Origin: Reclinomonas americana ATCC 50394
Taxonomy: Eukaryota
Assembly (NCBI GenBank): GCA_048213135.1
Contig: PS015064.1
Coordinates: 117,060-152,679 of the forward strand
Length of the DNA: 35,620 nucleotides
Direction of reading: 5' to 3'
A program made the translations under genes and the position numbers. Positions 1 through 34,857 of the stretch are shown here, one piece after another. A model generated the notes under the pieces. It ran no database searches. It saw nothing but the letters and a program-made list of their open reading frames with translations, and was not told the DNA's origin. The first letter of the stretch is position 1. Every line of letters starts with the position of its first letter.

Positions 1-363
1 GATGGTCGACACATCGTGAGTGGGAGTGGAGACAGCACCGTGCGAGTATGGTCTCTGGAGAGTGGAGAGGAAGTGCGACGGCTGGAGGGGCACACTGGAT
101 GGGTGTCATCTGTGGCCGTCTCTCCCGATGGTCTCCACATTGCGAGTGCTGGTGGCCAAGACAATAGCGTGCGAGTGTGGTCCACACCGCGTGGCCTTGC
201 CTGCCTCGAACTCGACGCCGCGCGCTCGGCCATGCTGGCTATGCAGGAGATGCAGGAGGAGGAGAGGGCCACCGAGGAGGAAGTAGATTCACGACGTCTT
301 CCCGAGCTGGTTCTGCGCTGCTTCATCGTCGAAGATGCCGAGGTTGTCCTTTTTCGGTGCTGA
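1..363 (+). CDS. Stand-alone WD40 beta-propeller protein, tandem copy 1 (3' part only; 5' end lies outside the window)
   Basis: Frame-1 ORF from base 1 reads DGRHIVSGSGDSTVRVWSLESGEEVRRLEGHTGWVSSVAVSPDG...VRVWS, then the tail PRGLACLELDAARSA...LPELVLRCFIVEDAEVVLFRC* that copies 2 and 3 also have. Confidence 0.9.
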   Translation, partial: DGRHIVSGSGDSTVRVWSLESGEEVRRLEGHTGWVSSVAVSPDGLHIASAGGQDNSVRVWSTPRGLACLELDAARSAMLAMQEMQEEERATEEEVDSRRLPELVLRCFIVEDAEVVLFRC

Positions 364-2433: not shown

Positions 2434-3831
2434 TCATTGTGCGTGGACAGGCTTCTGCTCGACGGAGGATGCCGTCGGTATGTCCAGGCCAGGAGCGGTG
2501 GGGCGAGACAACAGCCACTCGGGCGCCTTGAAACCCGTCTGGCTCTCGATCGTATCCAACATCGGCACCATCGACTGTGCCAAACTGCGAATCGTGGCGG
2601 GACCCGTGGTCGGATCATGACTCCACACCGTGATCTTGGGCTCCAGACCTTGAATAGCACGGGCATTGGCCTCGGCCAGCTTCTCGTACACATTCTTCTC
2701 CACCATCAGGTGGGTGATGAAACCACGCACATCGCCGTTGAAGGCGACCATCATGCTCTGCAGACCACTGGCCTGTCCGTTGTAGAACGCTTGCACGCCT
2801 TCCGCTTCCTTGAGCTTGGCGTACAACTCAGCCTCGGCCCTGATACGCAGGGCGCTCGCTTCGCCCTCTGCATCCTTGATCAGGCGCTCGGCAAGTACGC
2901 GGCTCGTGGACAGGACGTCGGCACGCTGGCGTTCCACCTCCATCTCCTGCCTCTTGGCCTCCACATCTCGCTCCAACGCCATGCTCAGCGACTTGGCCTC
3001 CTGTGCCGCCCGGATCTTGGCAGTTTCTGCCACCAGGGCCTGCTCGTGTTGCGTCTTGGCCAGGGTGGCTTTGGAGCGCAGAATCTCCTGCTGCCGCTCG
3101 TTTTCGATCAACTGAGTCTCGGCTTCGATCTGGGCCGTGCGTTGACGCTTCTCCGCCTCGCGCTCCTTGGCTCCAATGTCGCCCAACTTGACTTGCTCGG
3201 CTACCTCAATCTTGGCTCGGTTCTCCGCCTCGGCCTGGATGCGCTGACTCAACGACTTGAAGTAGTTGGAAGCGGGACCGTCCTTGAGCTCCTCAATGTT
3301 GGCGTTGTAGACCTCCAAGCCGTACTGGTTCAGCTGCGACTGCACATTGTCAAGCACGTCACGCTTGAACTGTGTGCGGGCGGCGAAAATGGTCTCCACG
3401 GGCAGGTTGGCGGCGACGGAGCGAGCCTCGCCCTCAATGATGCCACTGACGACGCGCAGGCGGTCGTTGCTCTCTTGATTCAGCAGGAAGCGTGCGTACT
3501 TGGCCAGGTCCGCCTCCGTGTTGCGTGGGCCCAGGGTAAAGACGGCCGGAAAGCGGAACTCCATCTTCTCCACCGACATGGCATTCACGGCAAACGAGAA
3601 TGTCGAGGGCGACATGTCGATCGTCTGGATGTTCTGGAAGGGGAGGCGGAAAAAAGTCTTGCCGATGGCCATATCCTTCACAAAGATGCCTGTCTTGACG
3701 AGCACCTCGTGGGCACGGGCGGTGTGCAGTCGTCCGACCATCAGCGCGCTCACAGCCGCTCCGGCGATCAGGATGCCGCCGCCGACCTTGACAGAGTTGG
3801 GAATCTGATCCAATGTCGTCGACAACGTCAT
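2434..3831 (-). CDS. Flotillin-like SPFH/band-7 protein, plant/fungal FLOT type, ~465 aa, intronless
   Basis: Uninterrupted ORF from ATG 3831. Motifs VNAMSVEKMEFRFPAVFTLGP, GIIEGEARSVAA, VQSQLNQYGLEVYNANIEEL and NRAKIEVAE..KLGDIGAKER match from memory the plant FLOT motifs [33 protein letters not shown] and LNQFGLVIYNANVKQL. Has an EA-rich coiled coil and an N-terminal hydrophobic segment. Confidence 0.93.
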   Translation of the reverse strand: MTLSTTLDQIPNSVKVGGGILIAGAAVSALMVGRLHTARAHEVLVKTGIFVKDMAIGKTFFRLPFQNIQTIDMSPSTFSFAVNAMSVEKMEFRFPAVFTLGPRNTEADLAKYARFLLNQESNDRLRVVSGIIEGEARSVAANLPVETIFAARTQFKRDVLDNVQSQLNQYGLEVYNANIEELKDGPASNYFKSLSQRIQAEAENRAKIEVAEQVKLGDIGAKEREAEKRQRTAQIEAETQLIENERQQEILRSKATLAKTQHEQALVAETAKIRAAQEAKSLSMALERDVEAKRQEMEVERQRADVLSTSRVLAERLIKDAEGEASALRIRAEAELYAKLKEAEGVQAFYNGQASGLQSMMVAFNGDVRGFITHLMVEKNVYEKLAEANARAIQGLEPKITVWSHDPTTGPATIRSLAQSMVPMLDTIESQTGFKAPEWLLSRPTAPGLDIPTASSVEQKPVHAQ

Positions 3832-4010
3832 TGTTCTGCGCGCGGTCTTTCGCACACAACAAACAGGCGCAGCGCTAGCGACGAGAGAAATTTACACTGT
3901 AGTGCAAGTCCAGAAGACACAGCGGGGGAGCTCGAAGCGAACCTGCGGTGAATCTGCGGCCAATATGTGCTAGTTTTTATCTAAAAAGTCTTGGGTTGGT
4001 TCTCGCTTTC

Positions 4011-4363: not shown

Positions 4364-5535
4364 ATGGCAACAAAGGTGTGAATGTATGCGCACTTTGCGT
4401 GGTTGGTGTCGACGTCTGTGCGTGCATTCGTGTGCTCGTGCATGTGTGCGGTTGCTCTTTGTGTGTGTATGTTTGTGTGTGCGCGTCTCACCGTGAGTGC
4501 TTGATACAGATCATTCAGAGTCTCGATGTGGTACGATCCGTCGCCGTCACGCCCGATAGCAAGCACATTGTTGGCGGATGCATGGACAGTTCCGTCCGAG
4601 TGTGGTCACTGGCGAGTGGCAAGGAGGTGCGACGGCTGGTGGGACACACTGCAAGGGTGATGTCTGTCGCCGTCACCCCAGATGGCAAGCATGTTGTCAG
4701 TGGCGGCTGCGACAACACAGTGCGGATGTGGTCTCTGGCGAATGGGGAGGAGGTACGACGTCGACGGCTGGAGGGCCACGCCGACATGGTGATGTCTGTC
4801 GCAGTCACTCCTGATGGCCAGCACATTGTCAGTGGGAGCTGGGACAACACAGTGAGGGTGTGGTCGCTGGCGAGTGGCAAGGAGGTGCGACGGCTGGTGG
4901 GACACACTGCAAGGGTGATGTCTGTCGCCGTCACCCCTGATGGCCAGCATGTCGTGAGTGGGAGCGAAGACAGCACCATGCGGGTATGGTTGCTGGCGAG
5001 CGGCGAAGAAGTGCGGCGGTTGAAGGGACACACTGACTGGGTGATTTCAGTCGCTGTTACTCCCGATGGTCAGCACATCGTGAGTGGGTGTGGAGATAGT
5101 ACCGTGCGGGTATGGTTGCTGGAAAGTGGAGAAGAAGTGCGACGATTGGAGGGACACACAGGATATGTGTGGTCTGTCGCCGTCACTCCCGATGGCCAAC
5201 ATATCGTGAGTGGGGGTGGGGACTGCACAATTCGGATGTGGTCTCTGGAGAGTGGAGAGGAAGTGCGACGGTTTGATGGTCACACTGGATGGGTGTCGTC
5301 TGTGGCCGTCTCTCCCGATGGTCAGCACATTGTGAGTGGAGGTGGCCAAGACAAGACAATACGAGTGTTGTCCATGCCGCGTGGCCTTGCTCGCCTCGAA
5401 CTTGACGCCGCGCGCTCGGCCCTGCGAGCGGTGCAGGAGATGCAGGAGGAAGAGGTAGATTCACGATGCCTTCCCGAGCTGGTTCTGCGCTGTTTCATCG
5501 TCGAGGATGCCGAGGTCGTCCTTTTCCGGTGCTGA
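4364..5535 (+). CDS. Stand-alone 7-repeat WD40 protein, tandem copy 2 (~345 aa; exons 4364-4375, 4510-5535)
   Basis: ATG GCA ACA AAG|gtgtga...gatacag|ATC ATT CAG gives a phase-0, 134-nt intron. Seven ~42-aa repeats follow (consensus LASGEEVRRLEGHTxxVxSVAVTPDGQHIVSGxxDxTVRVWS), then a ~50-aa tail. Copy 3 has the same MATK micro-exon. Confidence 0.92.
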
Positions 5536-7023
5536 GTCGGTGAGTCGGAAGGGAGAGCGGTGGCTGCTGGTGATTGTGAGTTGTTTTTCGTGTCTTGCGA
5601 GGGAGAGTGGGTGGTTGTGCGGGTTGCTGATGAGGGAAGAGAGGATGACAGAGGAGGAGAGAGAAGTCGATGTGGATGATGATGAATTGTTCTCTGCGTA
5701 CTGTTGCCCTGTCTTGTGAATGCGGGTGTGCGGGCGTGAAGCATGTCTCTCTCTGCATGCGTGCCTCTTTCTCACCTCAGTTTGTGTGTGCGAGCGCGAT
5801 GAATCACTTGGGAGTCTGTTGTGTCTTTTTCGTCTCGTTGTGATGTCTGTTGTGCGTGCATCTTTCATCGTGCATGTGTGTGCCTCAGGAGAGCGAATCA
5901 CCGATATTTGTTTCGCCGCGTCTTGTTTTGCACACCACCTGGGCGCCACTACTCTGCTTCCCATTGTGCGCATGCATGTGTAACATTCGCCACGCCCCCC
6001 CCCCCTTTTTTCGTCATGTCCGAAAACACATATAGTCCCCTGGTGACCGGGTGACGGGTTGAGCGACGGAGCAAGGGTCAAGGGTCAAGGGTAAAGGGTA
6101 AGAGAACAACTATAGAGTCACACTATAAGGGTATCAAAAGATANNNNNNNNNNNNNNNNNNNNNNNNNNNNNNNNNNNNNNNNNNNNNNNNNNNNNNNNN
6201 NNNNNNNNNNNNNNNNNNNNNNNNNNNNNNNNNNNNNNNNNNNNNNNNNNNNNNNNNNNNNNNNNNNNNNNNNNNNNNNNNNNNNNNNNNNNNNNNNNNN
6301 NNNNNNNNNNNNNNNNNNNNNNNNNNNNNNNNNNNNNNNNNNNNNNNNNNNNNNNNNNNNNNNNNNNNNNNNNNNNNNNNNNNNNNNNNNNNNNNNNNNN
6401 NNNNNNNNNNNNNNNNNNNNNNNNNNNNNNNNNNNNNNNNNNNNNNNNNNNNNNNNNNNNNNNNNNNNNNNNNNNNNNNNNNNNNNNNNNNNNNNNNNNN
6501 NNNNNNNNNNNNNNNNNNNNNNNNNNNNNNNNNNNNNNNNNNNNNNNNNNNNNNNNNNNNNNNNNNNNNNNNNNNNNNNNNNNNNNNNNNNNNNNNNNNN
6601 NNNNNNNNNNNNNNNNNNNNNNNNNNNNNNNNNNNNNNNNNNNNNNNNNNNNNNNNNNNNNNNNNNNNNNNNNNNNNNNNNNNNNNNNNNNNNNNNNNNN
6701 NNNNNNNNNNNNNNNNNNNNNNNNNNNNNNNNNNNNNNNNNNNNNNNNNNNNNNNNNNNNNNNNNNNNNNNNNNNNNNNNNNNNNNNNNNNNNNNNNNNN
6801 NNNNNNNNNNNNNNNNNNNNNNNNNNNCTCTCTGTTTCTCCGCCGTCTTCCTCCTTTGTGCGCTCACCATCTTCCCCAGTCGTCCACCCCTCCTTCCCGC
6901 ACAAGCTCGAGGCCGAGCATGCATGTTGGTCTGCTCAAGATGCGCTGACTTCCATTCTGCCTTCTGCGAGTCCATGATGGTGAGCATTCCGATACCGAAG
7001 TGGCATGACTGCATGCTGACTCT

Positions 7024-7058
<35 letters not shown>

Positions 7059-7973
7059 GGATGGATGTGTGTGCAGAAACGTACCTCGCCTTGCCTCATG
7101 ACCAGCCGTGTGTTGGCATCAGGTGCTTATCGGTGTGTTCGTCAGCGAGACAAGAGCTCCTCTTCTTCCATTCCTTTGCTACAGCACACCGACATGCAGA
7201 TACCTTGGAGGCACGTGCTTGCCGTCGGCCGTTACTGGGTATCACCTCACTCACTCGGCTCCCCGCTCGTATCCCACCATGCACGAAGCAGGTCTGTGGC
7301 CTTGTTCGTCTTGATCTCTCTTTCCTCCTTCCCTTCCACTCACCTCATTCATGCAGGTCGTGCATGCTATGGAGGGCGTGGCTGGCCATGGGTGTACGTA
7401 TGCATGCCGTGCTGTGCGATGGGTAGCCTGGTCGGTGGATCGTTGCAATCCAGCCTGGCAGGTCTGCGCGGATCGATGGTGTGCGCACCTTGGCTGCTGC
7501 TGCTGTCACTGTCGAGCGACGATGGTGGTGACTGCAGGCACGTGCGAGGCCAGCAACTCATGGTGGGCGCGTATTCTACTCCTGCGTTGAGGAACAAGTT
7601 GACGAGACTTGGAGATTGACTGACTCAGTGCTGCAGGCGTGTTGGCAAGTCGAAGACACGGGGTTCCGTGCGTCACAGTACTTGCGTGAGACGATACACC
7701 GACCGACTGTGAGTGTGATTGAAGGCACGAAGCATTGATTGTGACTTGAGTGAGAGGAGGCGAGCCTCACGACACAGCTGCCTCTTCCATCGCTGTGCTA
7801 CTGTGTTGGTCGCATCTCTTCTGTTCCTTGTGGCTCTCTTTCTTCATTATACCATCTTCGTGTGCGCCTCATCAACCTCGCTGTGGGCTGGTTCAAGGAG
7901 GTGTGCGGTTTCGATGACTCGGTGATGGATTGTGTGGCATCAGCACAACAGGGCCATGGCAGGCGCCACAGCT
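5536..7973 (+). repeat. Downstream part of the tandem unit, copy 2 (interrupted by an insertion and a gap)
   Basis: Colinear with 364-2271. Similarity breaks at ~5978 and resumes after the gap at 6828. Confidence 0.88.
5979..6143 (+). mobile_element. Left end of an insertion specific to copy 2, possibly an LTR
   Basis: Absent from copies 1 and 3. Begins TGTAAC (LTRs typically start TG), contains C and T homopolymer runs and (AAGGGTC/AAGGGTA)x4, then runs into gap 6144-6827. The right end and any target-site duplication are not visible. Confidence 0.4.
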
Positions 7974-8332
7974 TTATATATTACATCCAACAGACCGACA
8001 TTCCAGTCCTCATTGAGAGAGAATACAGGACAGTCGAAATGAAGTATCGCTGGGCATGCACGGAGCAATGGAGCGCCACCTTGTGTCACCACCAACACCC
8101 TGCTTGTCCATTCTGCCCATATCGACATCGCATGGACGAGTCCCAAATCGGTCTTCGAAAGCCCGCACGCATCAAAGAAGCCACATTGCTCTCATACTGC
8201 TGTATGTTGTGCGGGGTGCTGGTTGCAGCCTGGCGAGGGATGGACGACGTCTCGGAGCAAGGCGGGAGAAGAAAGGCGGGATGGAAACGGTGACAAGTCC
8301 GAGCGAGCAAATCACACACACACACACGGAGA

Positions 8333-9502
8333 ATGGCAACAAAGGTGTGATGTGTGCGCACTTTTGCGTGGTTGGTGTCTATGTGTGCATCCGTGTGCTT
8401 GTGTATGTTTGCAGTTGTTGTTTGTGTATGTGTGTACTTGTCGTCGAATGATGCTGTGTGTGTGTCTCACCACCAGCGTTTGGCTCAGATCATTCAGAGT
8501 CCCGCTGCAGTGCGGTCCGTCGCCGTCACTCCCGACGGCAAGCACATTGTTGGTGGATGTATGGACAAGACGATTCGAGTGTGGTCTCTGGCGAGTGGAG
8601 AAGAAGTGCGACGGCTGGAGAGAGACATTGGTCCGGTGTGGTCTGTCACTGTTACTCCCGATAATCAGCACATTGTGAGTGGGTGTGGAGACTGTACCGT
8701 ACGTGTGTGGTCGCTGGCGAGTGGAGAAGAGGTACCGGTGCGACGGCTGGAGGGACACACCAATGCGGTGGCGTCTGTCGCCGTCGCCCCTGATGGCCAG
8801 CACCTTGTTAGCGGGAGCTGGGACTGCACAGTACGGGTGTGGTCTTTGGCGAGTGGAGGCGAGGTGCGACGGCTGGAGGGGCACACCGATAAGGTCTGGT
8901 CAGTCGCCGTCACCCCTGATAGTCAGCACATTGTGAATGGGGGTGGAGATCATACCGTGCGAGTGTGGTTGCTGGCGAGTGGGGAAGAAGTGCGACGGCT
9001 GGAAGGACACACTGACTGGGTGCACTCTGTTGCCGTCACCCCCGACGGTCGGCACATAGTGAGTGGGAGTGGGGACCGCACCCTGCGAGTGTGGTCGCTG
9101 ACGAGTGGGGAAGAAGTTCGACGGTTGGAAGGACGCACTGGATGGGTGCAGTCTGTCGCTGTCACCCCCGATGGCCAGCACATTGTTAGCGGGAGCGAGG
9201 ACAGCACCATTAGGGTGTGGTCTTTGGCGAGTGGCGAGGAAGTGCGACGGTTGGAAGGTCACACTTATACGGTAGTCTCTGTAGCCGTCTCTCCTGACGG
9301 TCAGCATATTGTGAGTGCGGGTGGCTACGACAAGACCGTACGAGTGTGGTCCACGCCGCGTGGCCTTGCCCGTCTCGAACTCGACTCGGCCATGCATGCT
9401 GTGCAGGAGATGCAGGAAGGAGTAGATTCACGATGTCTTCTCGAGCTGGTTCTGCGCTGCTTCATCGTCGAGGATGCCGAGGTCGTTCTTTTCCGGTGCT
9501 GA
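8333..9502 (+). CDS. Stand-alone 7-repeat WD40 protein, tandem copy 3 (~341 aa; exons 8333-8344, 8489-9502)
   Basis: ATG GCA ACA AAG|gtgtga...ggctcag|ATC ATT CAG gives a 144-nt intron. Seven WD repeats follow, then the tail PRGLARLELD...LLELVLRCFIVEDAEVVLFRC*. Confidence 0.92.
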
Positions 9503-10070
9503 GTCGGTGAGTCGGAAGGGAAAGAGGGTTGGCTGCTGGTGACTGTGAGTTGCTATTCGTGTCTTGCGAGGGAGAGTGGGTGATCATGCGGTGCAGATGA
9601 TGGGGGGAGAGTGGACGACAGAGGAGGAGAGAGATTGCAGTTGATGATGCAGAATTTCTCACCGTGCTTGTTCCCCTTTCATGTGCACGTGAATGTGATT
9701 GTGCGGGCGTGGAGCATGTCTCTCTCTGTCTTTCTCACCTTCATTTGTGTGTGCAAGCGGGAGACGGTGGAGAAAGAGAGGAGACTCTGCAAGGAACAGA
9801 AAGGGAGGAACGAAGAGACATGCATTCTTCAGAGCCGGAAGGCGAATGAGATGGATTGCTTGGTAGTCTGTTTTGTCTTTCTGTCTCGGTGTGATGTCTG
9901 TTGTGCGTGCATCTTTAGTCGTACATGTATGTGTCTCAGGAGAGCGAGTGACCGACGTCTATTTTCTCGCATCTTGTTTTGCGCACCACTTTGGCATCAC
10001 GGCTCTGTGTCCCATGGGCGCGTGCTCCGTGGGCATTCTGCCTCTTGCTCTGAGGAATGCCTGTCATTCC

Positions 10071-10108
<38 letters not shown>

Positions 10109-11189
10109 TTTCTCCACCGTCTTCCTCCCTTGTGCGCTCATTTGCCTCCCCAGTCATCCACCCCATCCTTCCCGCACAAGCTCGATCCGAGTATCTGCTC
10201 AAGATGCGCCGGCTATGATTCAGCCATCACGTTGGGCAGTCTATCATGGTGAGCATTTCGATACCAAAGTGTGTGAGGTGGCGTAACTGCCGACTGAGTC
10301 TGCTCTCTCTCTCTCTTCTCTTGTAGGAGGTTGTGTGTGCAGAAGCTTCCCTCGTCTTGCCTCTTGAGCAAACCGCGTGTTGGTATCTGGTGCTGATCGG
10401 TGAGTTTGTCAGGTGAGACAGAGCAGATGTCTCTCCTCTTCCTCCGTTCCTTTGCTCACAGCGCACCGACATGCAGGCACCTTGGAAGCACGTTCCCCTC
10501 GTTGTTCCGTGACGATGACAGACGTGCTGTGCATCGCCCATTGCCGGCTGTCACCTCACTCACGCGACTCCCCACCCGCATCCCACCATGCACGAAGCAG
10601 GTGTGTGGCCTTGTTCGTGTCGTAATCTTTCTCTCTCCTCCTTCCCTCCCACTCACATCATTCATGCAGGTCGTGCTTGTCATGCAGAGTGTGGCTGGGT
10701 GGATGTACACATGTGTGTCGTGATGTGCGATGGATGGCCTGGTCGGTGGATCGTTTTTGAATCCCGGGCTGGCAAGTCGGAGCGGATCGATGGTGTGTGC
10801 ATCTTGGTTGTTGCTGTCACTGTCGAGCGACGATGGTGGTGGCCATGGGAGACTTACACGTGCTCGGCTAGCAACATGTGGTGAGTGCATATTCTGCGCC
10901 TGCGTTGAGGAACAAGTTGGCGAGACTTGGAGATACTGACTTTGTTCTATGTGTGATCTGAACACAGGCGTGATGGCAAGTAACTGGCCACTGGCACGCA
11001 TGCAGCATGGCAACTCGTGGTTCCGTGCCTCACAGTACACGCGTGAGACGATTCACCGACCGACTTTGAGTGTGATTGAAGGCACGAGGCATTGGTTGTG
11101 ATTTGGGTGGGAGGAGGCGAGTCTCACAACACAGCTGCCTCGTCCATCGCTGTGCTGCTGCACTGGTCACTCCTTTCATGTTCCTTGTG
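9503..11189 (+). repeat. Downstream part of the tandem unit, copy 3
   Basis: Colinear with copies 1 and 2 up to ...ctcctttcatgttccttgtg. Carries a private ~100 bp purine-rich insertion near 9760-9860. Confidence 0.88.
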
Positions 11190-18650: not shown

Positions 18651-18720
18651 AATGCTGGAGGTCTCAAGAGTTTCGAGGAGTGCAGACGTATATTGTTTCA
18701 TTTGGTGAATGGTTTCACTC

Positions 18721-19866
18721 CACTGCAGCACCCTCCCCTCCTCGCTGTGTCGACTCTTGCTCTTGAAGCGGTGGCGGTGAGACCTTCGGTCTCATCGCCC
18801 CATCCCTCTCTGAGTCTACCTCTCCACATGCAACAGCGAGGAATCGGAGATACCTCCCTCACGTGAGCTGAGATGCAATGCATCCACCACTGCAGCACCC
18901 CCTCCCCTCCTTGCTGTGTCGACTCTTGCCCTTGAAGCGGTGGCGGTGAGACCCTTCGGTCTCACCGCCTCTTCACTCTCTGAGACGATCTCTTCACGTG
19001 TAACAGTGAGGAACCGGAGATACCTCCCTCACTGTGTGCCGAGATGCAATGCATCCACCACTGCAGCACCCTCCCCCTCCTCGCTGTGTCGACTCTTGCC
19101 CTTGAAGCGGTGGCGGCGAGACCTTCGGTCTCACCGCCCCATCCCTCTCTAGAGTCTATCTCTCCACATGCAACAGTGAGGAACCGGAGATACCTCCCTC
19201 ACCGTGTGCTGAGATGCAACGCATCCACCACTGCAGCACCCTCCCCCTCCTCGCTGCGTCGCCTCCTGTTCTCGCTCACCGCCCCATCCATCTCTGATCT
19301 CTCCACATGCAACAGTGAGGAACCGGAGATACCTCCCTCACCGTGTGCTGAGATGCAACGCATCCACCACTGCAGCACCCTCCCCTCCTCGCTGTGTCGA
19401 CTCCTGTTCTCTCTAACCGCCCCATCCCTNNNNNNNNNNNNNNNNNNNNNNNNNNNNNNNNNNNNNNNNNNNNNNNNNNNNNNNNNNNNNNNNNNNNNNN
19501 NNGCCCCATCCCTCTCTGAGTCTTATCTCCACATACGACAGTGTGGAACTGGAGATTCCTCCCTCACTGTGTGCCGAGATGCAATGCATCCACCACTGTA
19601 GCACCCTCCCCCTCCTCGCTGTGTCGACTCCTGTTCTCTCTCACCGCCCCATCCCTCTCTGAGTCGATCTCTCCACATGCAAGAGCGAAGAACCGGAGAT
19701 ACCTCCCTCGCCGTGTGCTGCGATGCAACGCATCCACCACTGCAGCACCCTCCCCCTCCTCGCTGTGTCGACTCCTGTTCTCGCTCACCGCCCCATCCCT
19801 CTCTGAGTCGATCTCCACGTGCAACTGTGAGACCAATGCCATCCCTCCTCTCGGAGCTGAATGCAT
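18721..19866. repeat. Minisatellite with at least 7 units of ~139-171 bp in two subtypes
   Basis: Anchor ctg(c/t)agcacc occurs at 18723, 18890, 19061, 19231, 19370, 19596 and 19740. Long units contain the hairpin ggcggtgagacc-(c)ttc-ggtctcaccgcc and short units lack its left arm. Confidence 0.95.
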
Positions 19867-23646: not shown

Positions 23647-24144
23647 GCCGGCAAACAACAGATCTAGACGCGCAGGACAGACCTTGACGTCCTCCACGCG
23701 ATTGCTCTCANNNNNNNNNNNNNNNNNNNNNNNNNNNNNNNNNNNNNNNNNNNNNNNNNNNNNNNNNNNNNNNNNNNNNNNNNNNNNNNNNNNNNNNNNN
23801 NNNNNNNNNNNNNNNNNNNNNNNNNNNNNNNNNNNNNNNNNNNNNNNNNNNNNNNNNNNNNNNNNNNNNNNNNNNNNNNNNNNNNNNNNNNNNNNNNNNN
23901 NNNNNNNNNNNNNNNNNNNNNNNNNNNNNNNNAGTGAGTGAGAGAGAAGAAAGAGAGAGAGAGAGAGAGAGGGAGAGAGGAGGGATTGGGGAGAGAGAAG
24001 AATACTCAGAAAGGGAGCGGAGATTGGGCTATTTATTGTGCCTGGAAAAGCACCTTGCTTTTGTCGGTGTCCAGTGCGCTCGCAAGGATCCATGAAAAAA
24101 CCCAATGGAGCGAGACTGAATGGCTGAGCTTGTGCGTGACGCAG

Positions 24145-25790
24145 ACGACGTGGAGCGGATTCGACGTGCACTGCATGAGGTGGCAGAGGGAGCACGCCAT
24201 GTGCCGCCATCCACGGTGGATGCTGTCTTGTCGCTGATGAAGCAACTGAAGGCCGAGGTGTCGGCACCGCTTGCCGAGTTGGCGCAAGACCGAGTGCTCC
24301 AGGTGTGTACCGAGTTGTCGGCCGAGGCCACGCGGTGTGCGCAGGAATTCGTCGAATGGTTCACCCTCATCCCCGTTCCCCTCGCCATCTCGTGCCGTAC
24401 CCGACTGACACGCTCTTGTGCTCTTTGTGGCAAAAGGGAGTCGACATTTGATCGCACCGCCACTGTTCCCGTCCAGTGTCGATTTCGAGCTGCCGATGAT
24501 CTGTGCGAGGTGGAGTGCCACGGTGACAAGCTGCGCATCACGTACGCACACTACAACCGCATACGAGCCCTCTACCGTCAGCACGGCGGTGTGCACGACC
24601 CAGAACGAGCGCATTTCGATCGACTGTTGTACTGCATGCTGAAGAGGTGCGTGTCGCCGCTGTCGTGCGGCAAGTTCTCGTTCTCTTGTTCAGCGAGATC
24701 ACGACCCGCGTCTCCCTCTTCGCATGCTCACTTGCCTTCTTCTCCTTCTTCTTCTCCTCCTCATTCTTCTTCTTCCCCTTCTCCTTCTTCTGTTGTTCTT
24801 CTCCTTCTCCTTCCCCTCCCCTCCTCCCCCCTTCCCCTCCACTTGGTCGACAGATACGACTCGCTTCTCGCCAGCAAGGAACCGGGCAACCTGGTCAACA
24901 TGCACGCAGCGGCAACGCCAGTGGCGTTTGCCACCATGTCACAGGAGCTTGGCATCAACATGGTGAATGGTGACGCACACTGCACGCCGCCACTCACCTC
25001 TGCTGACTTGTCCGCAGGAGCTCTTCGCGTCGCCACTAAACTGCCACTTTTCCACGTTTTGCTCGGCCTTTCCCGACACGGATCGGTGCCGTCTTGAGTC
25101 ACCCGCGCTCGTTTTCTCCTTGTTTCTTTCCTGACGAACGACGCTGTGTGCAGGTATTTCGGCAGCCATGGCTCATTCTTCGATCGCGCACCCACCGGTG
25201 GCTCGTACGAGGTGAGTCGCGTTTGCCACGGCAGTGTGCTTGCATGCCACTCACGACTCTCGCATTACTCGACGCAGTGTAATCCACCGTACACAGAAGA
25301 GGTGCGTGGCGTTTTCCGCGATATCCGTCTTTTTGGTACGCATTCATCACGGCGTTCATGTGATGCAGGTCATGGAGCGCATGGCAGAGCACCTGGAAGC
25401 GCACATGCACGGCACGGCAGAGCCACTGTCGGTACTGGTGATTGTTCCCAACTGGAGTGATCCGATGATGCGCGCACTTGAGCTGCTGTTGGCGTCGCAG
25501 TTTGCCCGCGGCGATGTGGTACTGCCTGGCGGTGAGCACGGATTCGTACACGGCCAGCAGCACATGTTGCGTGCAATTACGACGTGATGCGCGTACGTGC
25601 GTACTTATAACGCTGTGCGCGCAGGCACGTTCGCGAGCGACCGCGACACGCCCAGGCGCTGACTTACGCGGCGCCGCACGGATCGCGCCTGGTTCTCCTG
25701 CAGAACGAGGCCGGTGCCCGCAAGTGGCCCGCCAACGACGCATTGTTGCAGCGACTTCGCGACGCAATGGCCGTGCCAGCAAGCAAATAA
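24145..25790 (+). CDS. PCIF1: PCIF1/CAPAM cap-specific adenosine N6-methyltransferase, C-terminal exons (about 8 exons)
   Basis: Spliced motifs LYCMLKR|YDSL, ELFASPLNCHFSTFCSAFPDTDR|YFGSHGSFFD, GGSYE|CNPPYTEE|VMERMAEH, EPLSVLVIVPNW, EHGFVHGQQH and LQNEAGARKWP, with stop TAA at 25788-25790. They correspond to human ECFASPLN...CSAFPDTDGYFGS...GSFEANPPF...EPLSFIVFIPEW...LQND. Confidence 0.92.

Positions 25791-26047: not shown

Positions 26048-34857
<8,810 letters not shown>

Follow-up and report, generated by a model that had tools for sequence, protein, structure and literature searches.

Among described systems, the closest to the genes analysed here are the HNWD/NWD NOD-like receptors (NLRs) of the fungus Podospora anserina (HET-D, HET-E, HET-R; PMC1805685, PMC12222747), 10 genes whose WD40 repeats vary in pairs of residues on the propeller's top face. 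In a stretch of 35,620 nucleotides from the jakobid Reclinomonas americana ATCC 50394 (GenBank assembly GCA_048213135.1, contig PS015064.1, positions 117,060 to 152,679, forward strand; the window refers to this whole stretch), we find an array of stand-alone WD40 genes that vary in the same way. Paoletti et al. (2007) report four selected Podospora codons, 7/9 and 25/27, that flank a conserved Val and Asp (PMC1805685), just as pairs 17/19 and 35/37 of the present repeat do. Both systems exchange repeats between genes, keep the scaffold under purifying selection and hold many combinations of variable sites. Unlike the HNWD proteins, the family has neither HET nor NACHT domain, carries a single seven-bladed propeller where they have about 11 conserved repeats arranged as two, and comprises hundreds of genes. 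The high within-gene conservation of repeats that concerted evolution produces in HNWD genes is also lacking here, since repeats within a gene share 73% identity whereas the same blade in different genes shares 78%. Finally, the ratio of nonsynonymous to synonymous rates (omega) is modest in this family, its tail is novel, and its host is a jakobid and not a fungus. Judged by sequence, the family varies like an HNWD sensor yet is not an HNWD protein.

Three further systems share parts of this design. Nematode F-box genes also form hundreds of tandem paralogues in which a conserved docking domain is under purifying selection and the substrate-facing domains are positively selected (PMC8120010), but the constant module of the present family is C-terminal and is not an F-box by Pfam or profile, and its variable module is a WD40 propeller. 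Receptors of the CRL4 ligases (DCAFs; PMC13061254, PMC6821201) likewise combine a seven-bladed WD40 propeller with an adjoining two-helix motif and leave the top face free. They dock by a helix-loop-helix of very low sequence similarity that inserts in DDB1's BPA-BPC cleft, for which the family offers as counterpart only its predicted helix-loop-helix tail; its helices are C-terminal, about 20 residues each, and lack WDxR, a motif that is not universal in DCAFs (PMC13061254). In a limited literature search on DCAFs we found no report of a DCAF family this large with a hypervariable face. Highly repetitive propellers of the WRAP type (5yzv, 2ymu; PMC9218822), for which a role in innate immunity has been proposed, have the same fold, with a root-mean-square deviation (rmsd) of about 1 Å, and a consensus-like 42-residue repeat. 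However, WRAP propellers arose by recent amplification, have near-identical blades and are often part of STAND proteins, whereas third codon positions here differ by about 38% between blades. No prior description of the family was found in the literature, including that on WD40 expansion in jakobids, as judged by titles and the openings of abstracts, with literature under the genus name outside the search.

We consider it likely that the family forms a repertoire of binding proteins with one shared partner or one shared mode of assembly. The evolutionary principle as such is not new. What is seen here is the HNWD manner of varying a WD40 face in a non-fungal host, separated from the NLR engine and spread over hundreds of genes. 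The family is a natural library of binders on a regular scaffold, and its constant tail provides a single experimental handle on the machine that the repertoire as a whole would serve. To our knowledge, how free-living protists recognise intracellular viruses and bacteria is a largely open question.

The variable face of a seven-bladed propeller

A sequence-only reading of this DNA had drawn attention to hypervariable residues at fixed positions of the WD40 repeats, and these residues sit in a stand-alone gene of two exons, present as two complete copies (4364-5535 and 8333-9502) and the 3' end of a third (1-363). In the predicted structure of a complete copy, a first exon of four codons is separated by a GT-AG intron of 134-144 bases from a long exon encoding seven WD40 repeats and a tail, giving a product of about 345 residues of which the tail takes about 50. 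The splicing of the window copies is read from conservation among paralogues: ATG and GT donor stand at the same spacing in 60 of 62 paralogues examined, as does the AG acceptor in 60 of 62. Gene copies 1-3 and their flanks were duplicated together, with about 78-81% identity. AlphaFold2 models the protein as a seven-bladed propeller with a mean predicted local distance difference test (pLDDT) score of 90, matching seven-bladed structures at about 1 Å. Pfam finds only WD40/propeller families on the long exon and no NACHT domain in the copies, and no membrane-length hydrophobic segment is present (no 19-residue stretch exceeds a mean hydropathy of 1.7). Two other gene structures are rejected. 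The array does not encode one long repeat protein, as every copy ends in its own stop, and the copies are probably not alternative terminal exons of an NLR, as each has its own start exon and the neighbouring NLR lies on the opposite strand.

All 12 GH-x-xx-V-x and all 10 SG-xx-D-x variants listed in the sequence-only reading occur in the copies where it placed them. Its description of near-identical repeats on an almost invariant scaffold goes too far, since within-gene identity is only 73% for DNA and 69% for protein (76% outside the five variable sites). The 12 full repeats of the window share 67-88% DNA identity, and 19 of the 42 repeat positions are invariant among them; positions 17 and 19 carry eight different residues each, position 37 six, and positions 16 and 35 five each.

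For the family at large, 110 loci plus the window gave 190 candidate frames, 154 of them with the tail; after removal of 14 whose tail start was unanchored and 41 with fewer than seven parsed repeats, 99 genes were left, 70 of the window's two-exon subfamily A and 29 others. As these loci come from the best full-length matches, intact copies are over-represented among them, and the closest pairs may include a few that are allelic. In the 420 repeats of the 70 subfamily A paralogues, entropy at positions 16, 17, 19, 35 and 37 is 2.6, 3.1, 3.4, 2.9 and 2.9 bits, against at most 1.75 bits at every other position, and the same five positions are the most variable in subfamily B. Distinct four-site combinations number 264 among the 420 repeats, and all 70 genes have different face signatures. 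Aromatic residues (Trp, Tyr or Phe) make up 33% of the residues at 17, 19 and 35 and 0% at four other variable positions.

The sequence-only reading had assigned these sites to the top, binding face, and the assignment is supported. Positions 17, 19 and 35 correspond to R1-2, R1 and D-1, the hot spots that Wu et al. (2012) place on the top face of WD40 propellers (PMC3419727), and on the AlphaFold2 model the variable positions map, at the level of secondary structure, to the entry of strand a and the b-c turn. Both the hot-spot correspondence and the model support a location of the variable residues on the top face.

The conserved tail and its possible partner

The tail is the most conserved part of the protein, with a proportion of nonsynonymous differences (pN) of 0.03-0.06 against 0.21-0.30 for synonymous ones (pS), and its L, R, F and E are invariant in 153 of 153 tails. 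Modelled alone, it is predicted as helix 3-25, an acidic loop and helix 34-53, folded into an antiparallel two-helix hairpin (pLDDT 90). Because it is kept on propellers devoid of repeat similarity, both in this genome and in two outside proteins, the tail predates the expansion of the family. Three divergent, partly spliced WD40 genes bearing the family tail (L128, L131, L143) may represent the low-copy state from which the family arose. A third tail type, WILVDVVLRCF, marks a separate subfamily (L041:6790-7824, L089, L146) whose copies often adjoin subfamily A arrays, and one of the outside proteins, P0002, is closest to this type. At L141:2692-3455, a frameshifted copy is followed by two tail-only duplicates about 350 bases apart.

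In the reading we prefer, each member would be a small soluble protein with two working ends. The top face of the propeller would bind a target, each copy offering a different face, and the helical hairpin, which emerges beyond the final strand c and, as WD40 topology implies, on the side away from the variable face, would dock one partner common to the family. Tandem duplication would enlarge the repertoire, and short gene conversions between paralogues, most of them in register and an occasional one across blades, would reshuffle it. Purifying selection would act on scaffold and tail, and positive selection of modest strength on the face. The common partner would most likely be an adaptor of a cullin-RING ubiquitin ligase, and the proteins would be exchangeable substrate receptors sending foreign (viral or bacterial) proteins to degradation, which would give the family a role in defence. 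Exchangeable receptors are suggested by the pattern itself: tandem copies by the hundred, each joining a face that varies to a docking module that does not, a pattern shared with nematode F-box genes.

That the shared partner is a cullin ligase we hold to be slightly short of an even chance. On predicted architecture, DDB1-CUL4 would be the best-fitting adaptor, followed by Elongin C and, in third place, Skp1. The genome contains CUL4 and CUL1-like cullins as well as Elongin C and exons of the Skp1 type. If the ligase reading is true, it would reveal a ubiquitin-based immune repertoire in a deep-branching eukaryote and a new docking motif. The complete picture, an antibody-like jakobid repertoire of 600-1,200 WD40 receptors diversified by conversion and by selection at aromatic-rich contacts, all plugging into one cullin ligase (probably DDB1-CUL4) by a new C-terminal hairpin and destroying the proteins of invaders, we regard as possible but doubtful.

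Several results weigh against a cullin ligase as the partner. Since cullins belong to the general equipment of eukaryotes, finding them here lends little support. DDB1 was not identified among the PF03178 loci covered, of which the one used for a search was SF3B3 and a second looked similar by eye. The helix-loop-helix of DCAF1 is N-terminal to its propeller and spans 30 residues (PMC6821201), whereas the family tail is C-terminal and longer, and WDxR occurs in none of the 154 proteins. None of 34 tails matches a Pfam family above the cut-off, two giving weak DED matches (E 0.057), and compared with eight F-boxes of this genome the tail reaches profile probabilities of 0.6% and 1.2%. The tail also has a BC-box-like spacing but misses two of the four positions of the consensus (S,T,P)LXXX(C,S,A)XXX-hydrophobic (PMC4878042). 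In that register, Leu and the final Phe are present in 153 of 153 tails, the first position is Cys in 140 and the central position Val in 149; the strict consensus occurs anywhere in 7 of 154 tails.

Other searches were negative or uninformative. No Pfam F-box, a motif of 42-48 residues, was matched in the 34 tails, and the window copies terminate about 20 residues beyond the F-box-similar segment. The columns after the BC-box register have no proline among their common residues, as a cullin box would, and Pfam SOCS_box has no match in the genome, whose assembly may be incomplete. Against sequences of solved structures the tail gave no match and then one at E 0.93; a 5.8-billion sequence collection gave none and, by profile, only the two proteins already in the profile; a search of the ESM Atlas gave nothing usable. 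The matches listed by fold searches were all generic helical hairpins, the best of them, level with many others, having Z 8.6 and an rmsd of 2.1 Å across 53 residues, and Foldseek gave no match at E 0.001 or better. F-box, SOCS-box and DCAF entries are absent among the fold matches listed, which excludes nothing. A predicted complex of the tail with Elongin C, made with no alignments and an uncertain partner fold, scored 0.00 and speaks neither for nor against; Elongin C was read through its in-frame intron. The Elongin C locus itself (L111:1495-1872) is divergent, its apparent intron being in frame and stop-free. At least four different CUL1-like C-termini can be recognised by eye (L152, L154, L155, L156), two of them in tandem on one contig, a possible small expansion of cullins.

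The tail could instead serve a different engine. The propellers may be detached sensors of the NLR type that see non-self while the tail docks a STAND/NLR protein or another signalling hub, a split of sensor and engine that would explain why the variable positions are those of HNWD sensors and why a gene with NACHT-like, pentapeptide and 14 WD40 repeat regions adjoins the array on the minus strand. However, that neighbour has old repeats, which share 55% DNA identity with one another and no more than 70% with any repeat of the family, so the gene stands outside the repeat pool of the family, and the tail matches no Pfam family above the cut-off, its DED matches being weak. We therefore think this arrangement unlikely.

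Still less likely, in our judgement, are binders that need no outside machine, pairing hairpin to hairpin as homo- or heterodimers and acting alone by sequestering or blocking their targets, with combinatorial pairing. Two-helix hairpins often form four-helix dimers, the tail is predicted to be such a hairpin, and a tail common to all copies would permit any pairing. The retention of the tail on unrelated, divergent propellers nevertheless fits a fixed outside partner at least equally well, and we keep one shared docking partner as the preferred reading.

Exchange between paralogues, selection and family size

The paralogues are fine mosaics, because the histories of half-blades are decoupled and in-register identical runs exceed all permutations. 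Distances computed from the two halves of a blade correlate at 0.12-0.20, compared with 0.34-0.40 for odd and even codons (66 of 70 genes), and 75 in-register identical runs of at least 60 nt are observed against at most 55 in 60 permutations. The nearest neighbour of a repeat is the same blade of another gene in 373 of 420 cases, another blade in 47 and its own gene in none, which rules out intragenic homogenisation as the main process.

The sequence-only reading had also noted that variants recur at different blade numbers, and they do: DW occurs in five of six blades, GW in all six, SW-D in three and CG-D in four, and SE-D-S recurs too. Each is concentrated in one or two blades (SW-D is in blade 3 in 16 of 19 cases), and recurring motifs mostly share codons (DW-V, 29 of 35), which would fit transfer or common descent. 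The inference of repeat shuffling survives in part. Cross-blade transfer exists, as a 71-nt tract of copy 2 illustrates, but in-register exchange between paralogues dominates and cross-blade transfer is rare. The tract, in blade 2, is the longest identical run among 73,500 cross-blade pairs and probably reflects a recent conversion from blade 4 to blade 2; AR/M codons stand at blade 4 in four genes, copy 2 among them. Between genes, 24 cross-blade runs of at least 45 nt are found, against a null mean of 6.5 and a null maximum of 48, and since the count stays below that maximum, cross-blade shuffling between genes is rejected as a significant general signal. In two genes (C7910:453-1496 and C7258:4261-5289; L058 and L067), several blades are closest to the adjoining blade number of other genes, a pattern resembling that after an off-register crossover that preserved seven blades.

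Selection on the face was assessed by a custom MG94-type grid likelihood, with a separate FastTree tree for each blade. The data favour a site mixture in which omega may exceed 1, with likelihood-ratio test (LRT) statistics of 52 and 39, and of 75 on a finer grid, whereas neutral simulations give at most 21.6 with within-blade mosaicism and at most 2.8 without it (seven runs per setting, a small null). Pooled over the five positions, omega is 1.4, whereas no simulation exceeds 1.0. An omega of about 3 is reached at five blade-sites, namely positions 17 and 19 in blade 2, 16 and 19 in blade 5, and 35 in blade 7, and sites with omega of at least 2 number five in the real data and 0-1 in simulations. 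Among 14 sites with posterior above 0.9, 13 are face positions, while scaffold omega is mostly 0.05-0.35 (0.23 when counted). Counted dN at hot codons is 1.26 (1.17-1.35) times scaffold dS.

Other results pull against positive selection. When the synonymous rate is free per position, omega exceeds 1 only at 37 (p=0.004) and 16 (p=0.03) and not at 17, 19 and 35, and the dN/dS counted inside hot codons comes to 1.05 (0.95-1.17) for subfamily A and, for subfamily B with its greater saturation, to 0.74 (0.58-0.93). Thus the proposal that these sites are positively selected like their HNWD counterparts is upheld by the mixture test, which beats the simulations, and is mostly non-significant when the synonymous rate of the same codon is used; selection on the face positions is probably positive and modest in size. 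Paralogues of subfamily A differ by 17% in the intron, 21-30% at synonymous sites of the tail and about 41% at those of the repeats. The lower divergence of intron and tail may reflect import into repeats from other blades, in which case repeat dS overestimates the neutral rate.

These figures bear on a neutral account, in which the loops tolerate change (omega about 1), recombination inflates the tests and genomic drift leaves no selected repertoire. The counted ratio that includes 1, the three of five positions that lose significance, the LRT of 21.6 reached by mosaic neutral simulations, and the presence of broken copies and tail-only duplicates all agree with it. Yet the real LRT of 75 lies above all 14 simulations, pooled omega and the number of sites with high omega do so as well, and other exposed positions vary far less and without aromatics. 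Moreover, a scaffold omega of about 0.23 and a tail conserved across hundreds of genes imply that the proteins are maintained, so that we find relaxed constraint and drift an improbable explanation.

The family is large. A protein search of its own genome gives 145 matches and the tail alone at least 150, while a codon pattern of the tail core gives 1,258 matches in the assembly and 0 for the reversed control; as this pattern recovers 97 of 98 subfamily A tails and 46 of 55 of subfamily B, it is a slight undercount. Eight of nine tested pairs of F-box and cullin loci align at 84-97%, and therefore the assembly is partly diploid and the haploid gene number roughly 630-1,260. Twenty further regions drawn from the first 100 listed tail matches hold 29 matches, of which 25 have WD40 repeats upstream, 20 of them with at least five in frame; two tail-only duplicates, a gap and a divergent spliced gene account for the remaining four. 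Against 1.84 billion proteins, the tail profile retrieves three, two very divergent propellers with the same tail and one protein derived from an expressed sequence tag (EST). This last protein, labelled Reclinomonas americana, shows 100% identity to one family locus across 116 residues, so at least one gene of the family, other than the window copies, is transcribed.

An artefact of short-read misassembly, which would have made the mosaics and inflated the copy number, is hardly credible: the assembly consists of 16,441 contigs with numerous gaps, HNWD repeat domains are misbuilt in Illumina assemblies (PMC12222747) and genes of single-copy type come as pairs, as if both haplotypes were partly assembled, but repeats about 73-78% identical are far easier to assemble than those of HNWD genes, the independent EST-derived protein matches one copy exactly, site-specific omega patterns are unexpected from misassembly, and haplotypes could halve the count without abolishing the family.

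Feature coordinates and neighbouring genes

Table 1. Features of the WD40 gene array, in window coordinates
Feature	Position	Strand	Remark
Copy 1, 3' end: last 1.4 WD40 repeats and tail	1..363	+	5' portion falls in assembly gap
Copy 2, predicted first exon (4 codons, MATK), ending at GT donor	4364..4375	+	From conservation across paralogues
Copy 2, predicted GT-AG intron, phase 0	4376..4509	+	From conservation across paralogues
Copy 2, seven WD40 repeats (first partial), one 7-bladed propeller	4510..5370	+	
71-nt tract in blade 2 of copy 2, carrying the AR/M variant	4609..4679	+	Identical to 4867-4937
Blade 4 of copy 2, probable donor of the 71-nt tract	4867..4937	+	Direction inferred
Copy 2, conserved C-terminal tail (helix, acidic loop, helix) and stop codon	5371..5535	+	
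Non-coding flank duplicated along with the gene	5536..7832	+	Assembly gap 6144-6827 inside; about 78-87% identical to 364-2088 and 9503-11189
Copy 3, predicted first exon (MATK)	8333..8344	+	
Copy 3, predicted GT-AG intron	8345..8488	+	
Copy 3, seven WD40 repeats, one 7-bladed propeller	8489..9349	+	Mean pLDDT 90; rmsd about 1 Å to 7-bladed 5yzv and 7big
Copy 3, conserved tail and stop codon	9350..9502	+	

Between array copies 1 and 2, an intronless flotillin-like SPFH/Band 7 gene (E 1e-21) lies on the minus strand at 2434-3855. The multi-exon STAND/NLR-like neighbour, from 11395 to about 16000 on the minus strand, has a P-loop exon with weak NACHT matches below the cut-off, together with pentapeptide repeats and 14 diverged WD40 repeats. 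At 18720-19830 lie tandem repeats, 170 and 144 bases in period, with about 89% matches. On the plus strand, a PCIF1-like gene (PF12237, E 7e-11) follows at about 24100-25600, and a RhoGEF gene (PF00621, E 8e-7) with proline-rich exons at about 26600-33000; one segment of the latter, unconfirmed by Pfam, we take by eye to be SH3-like.

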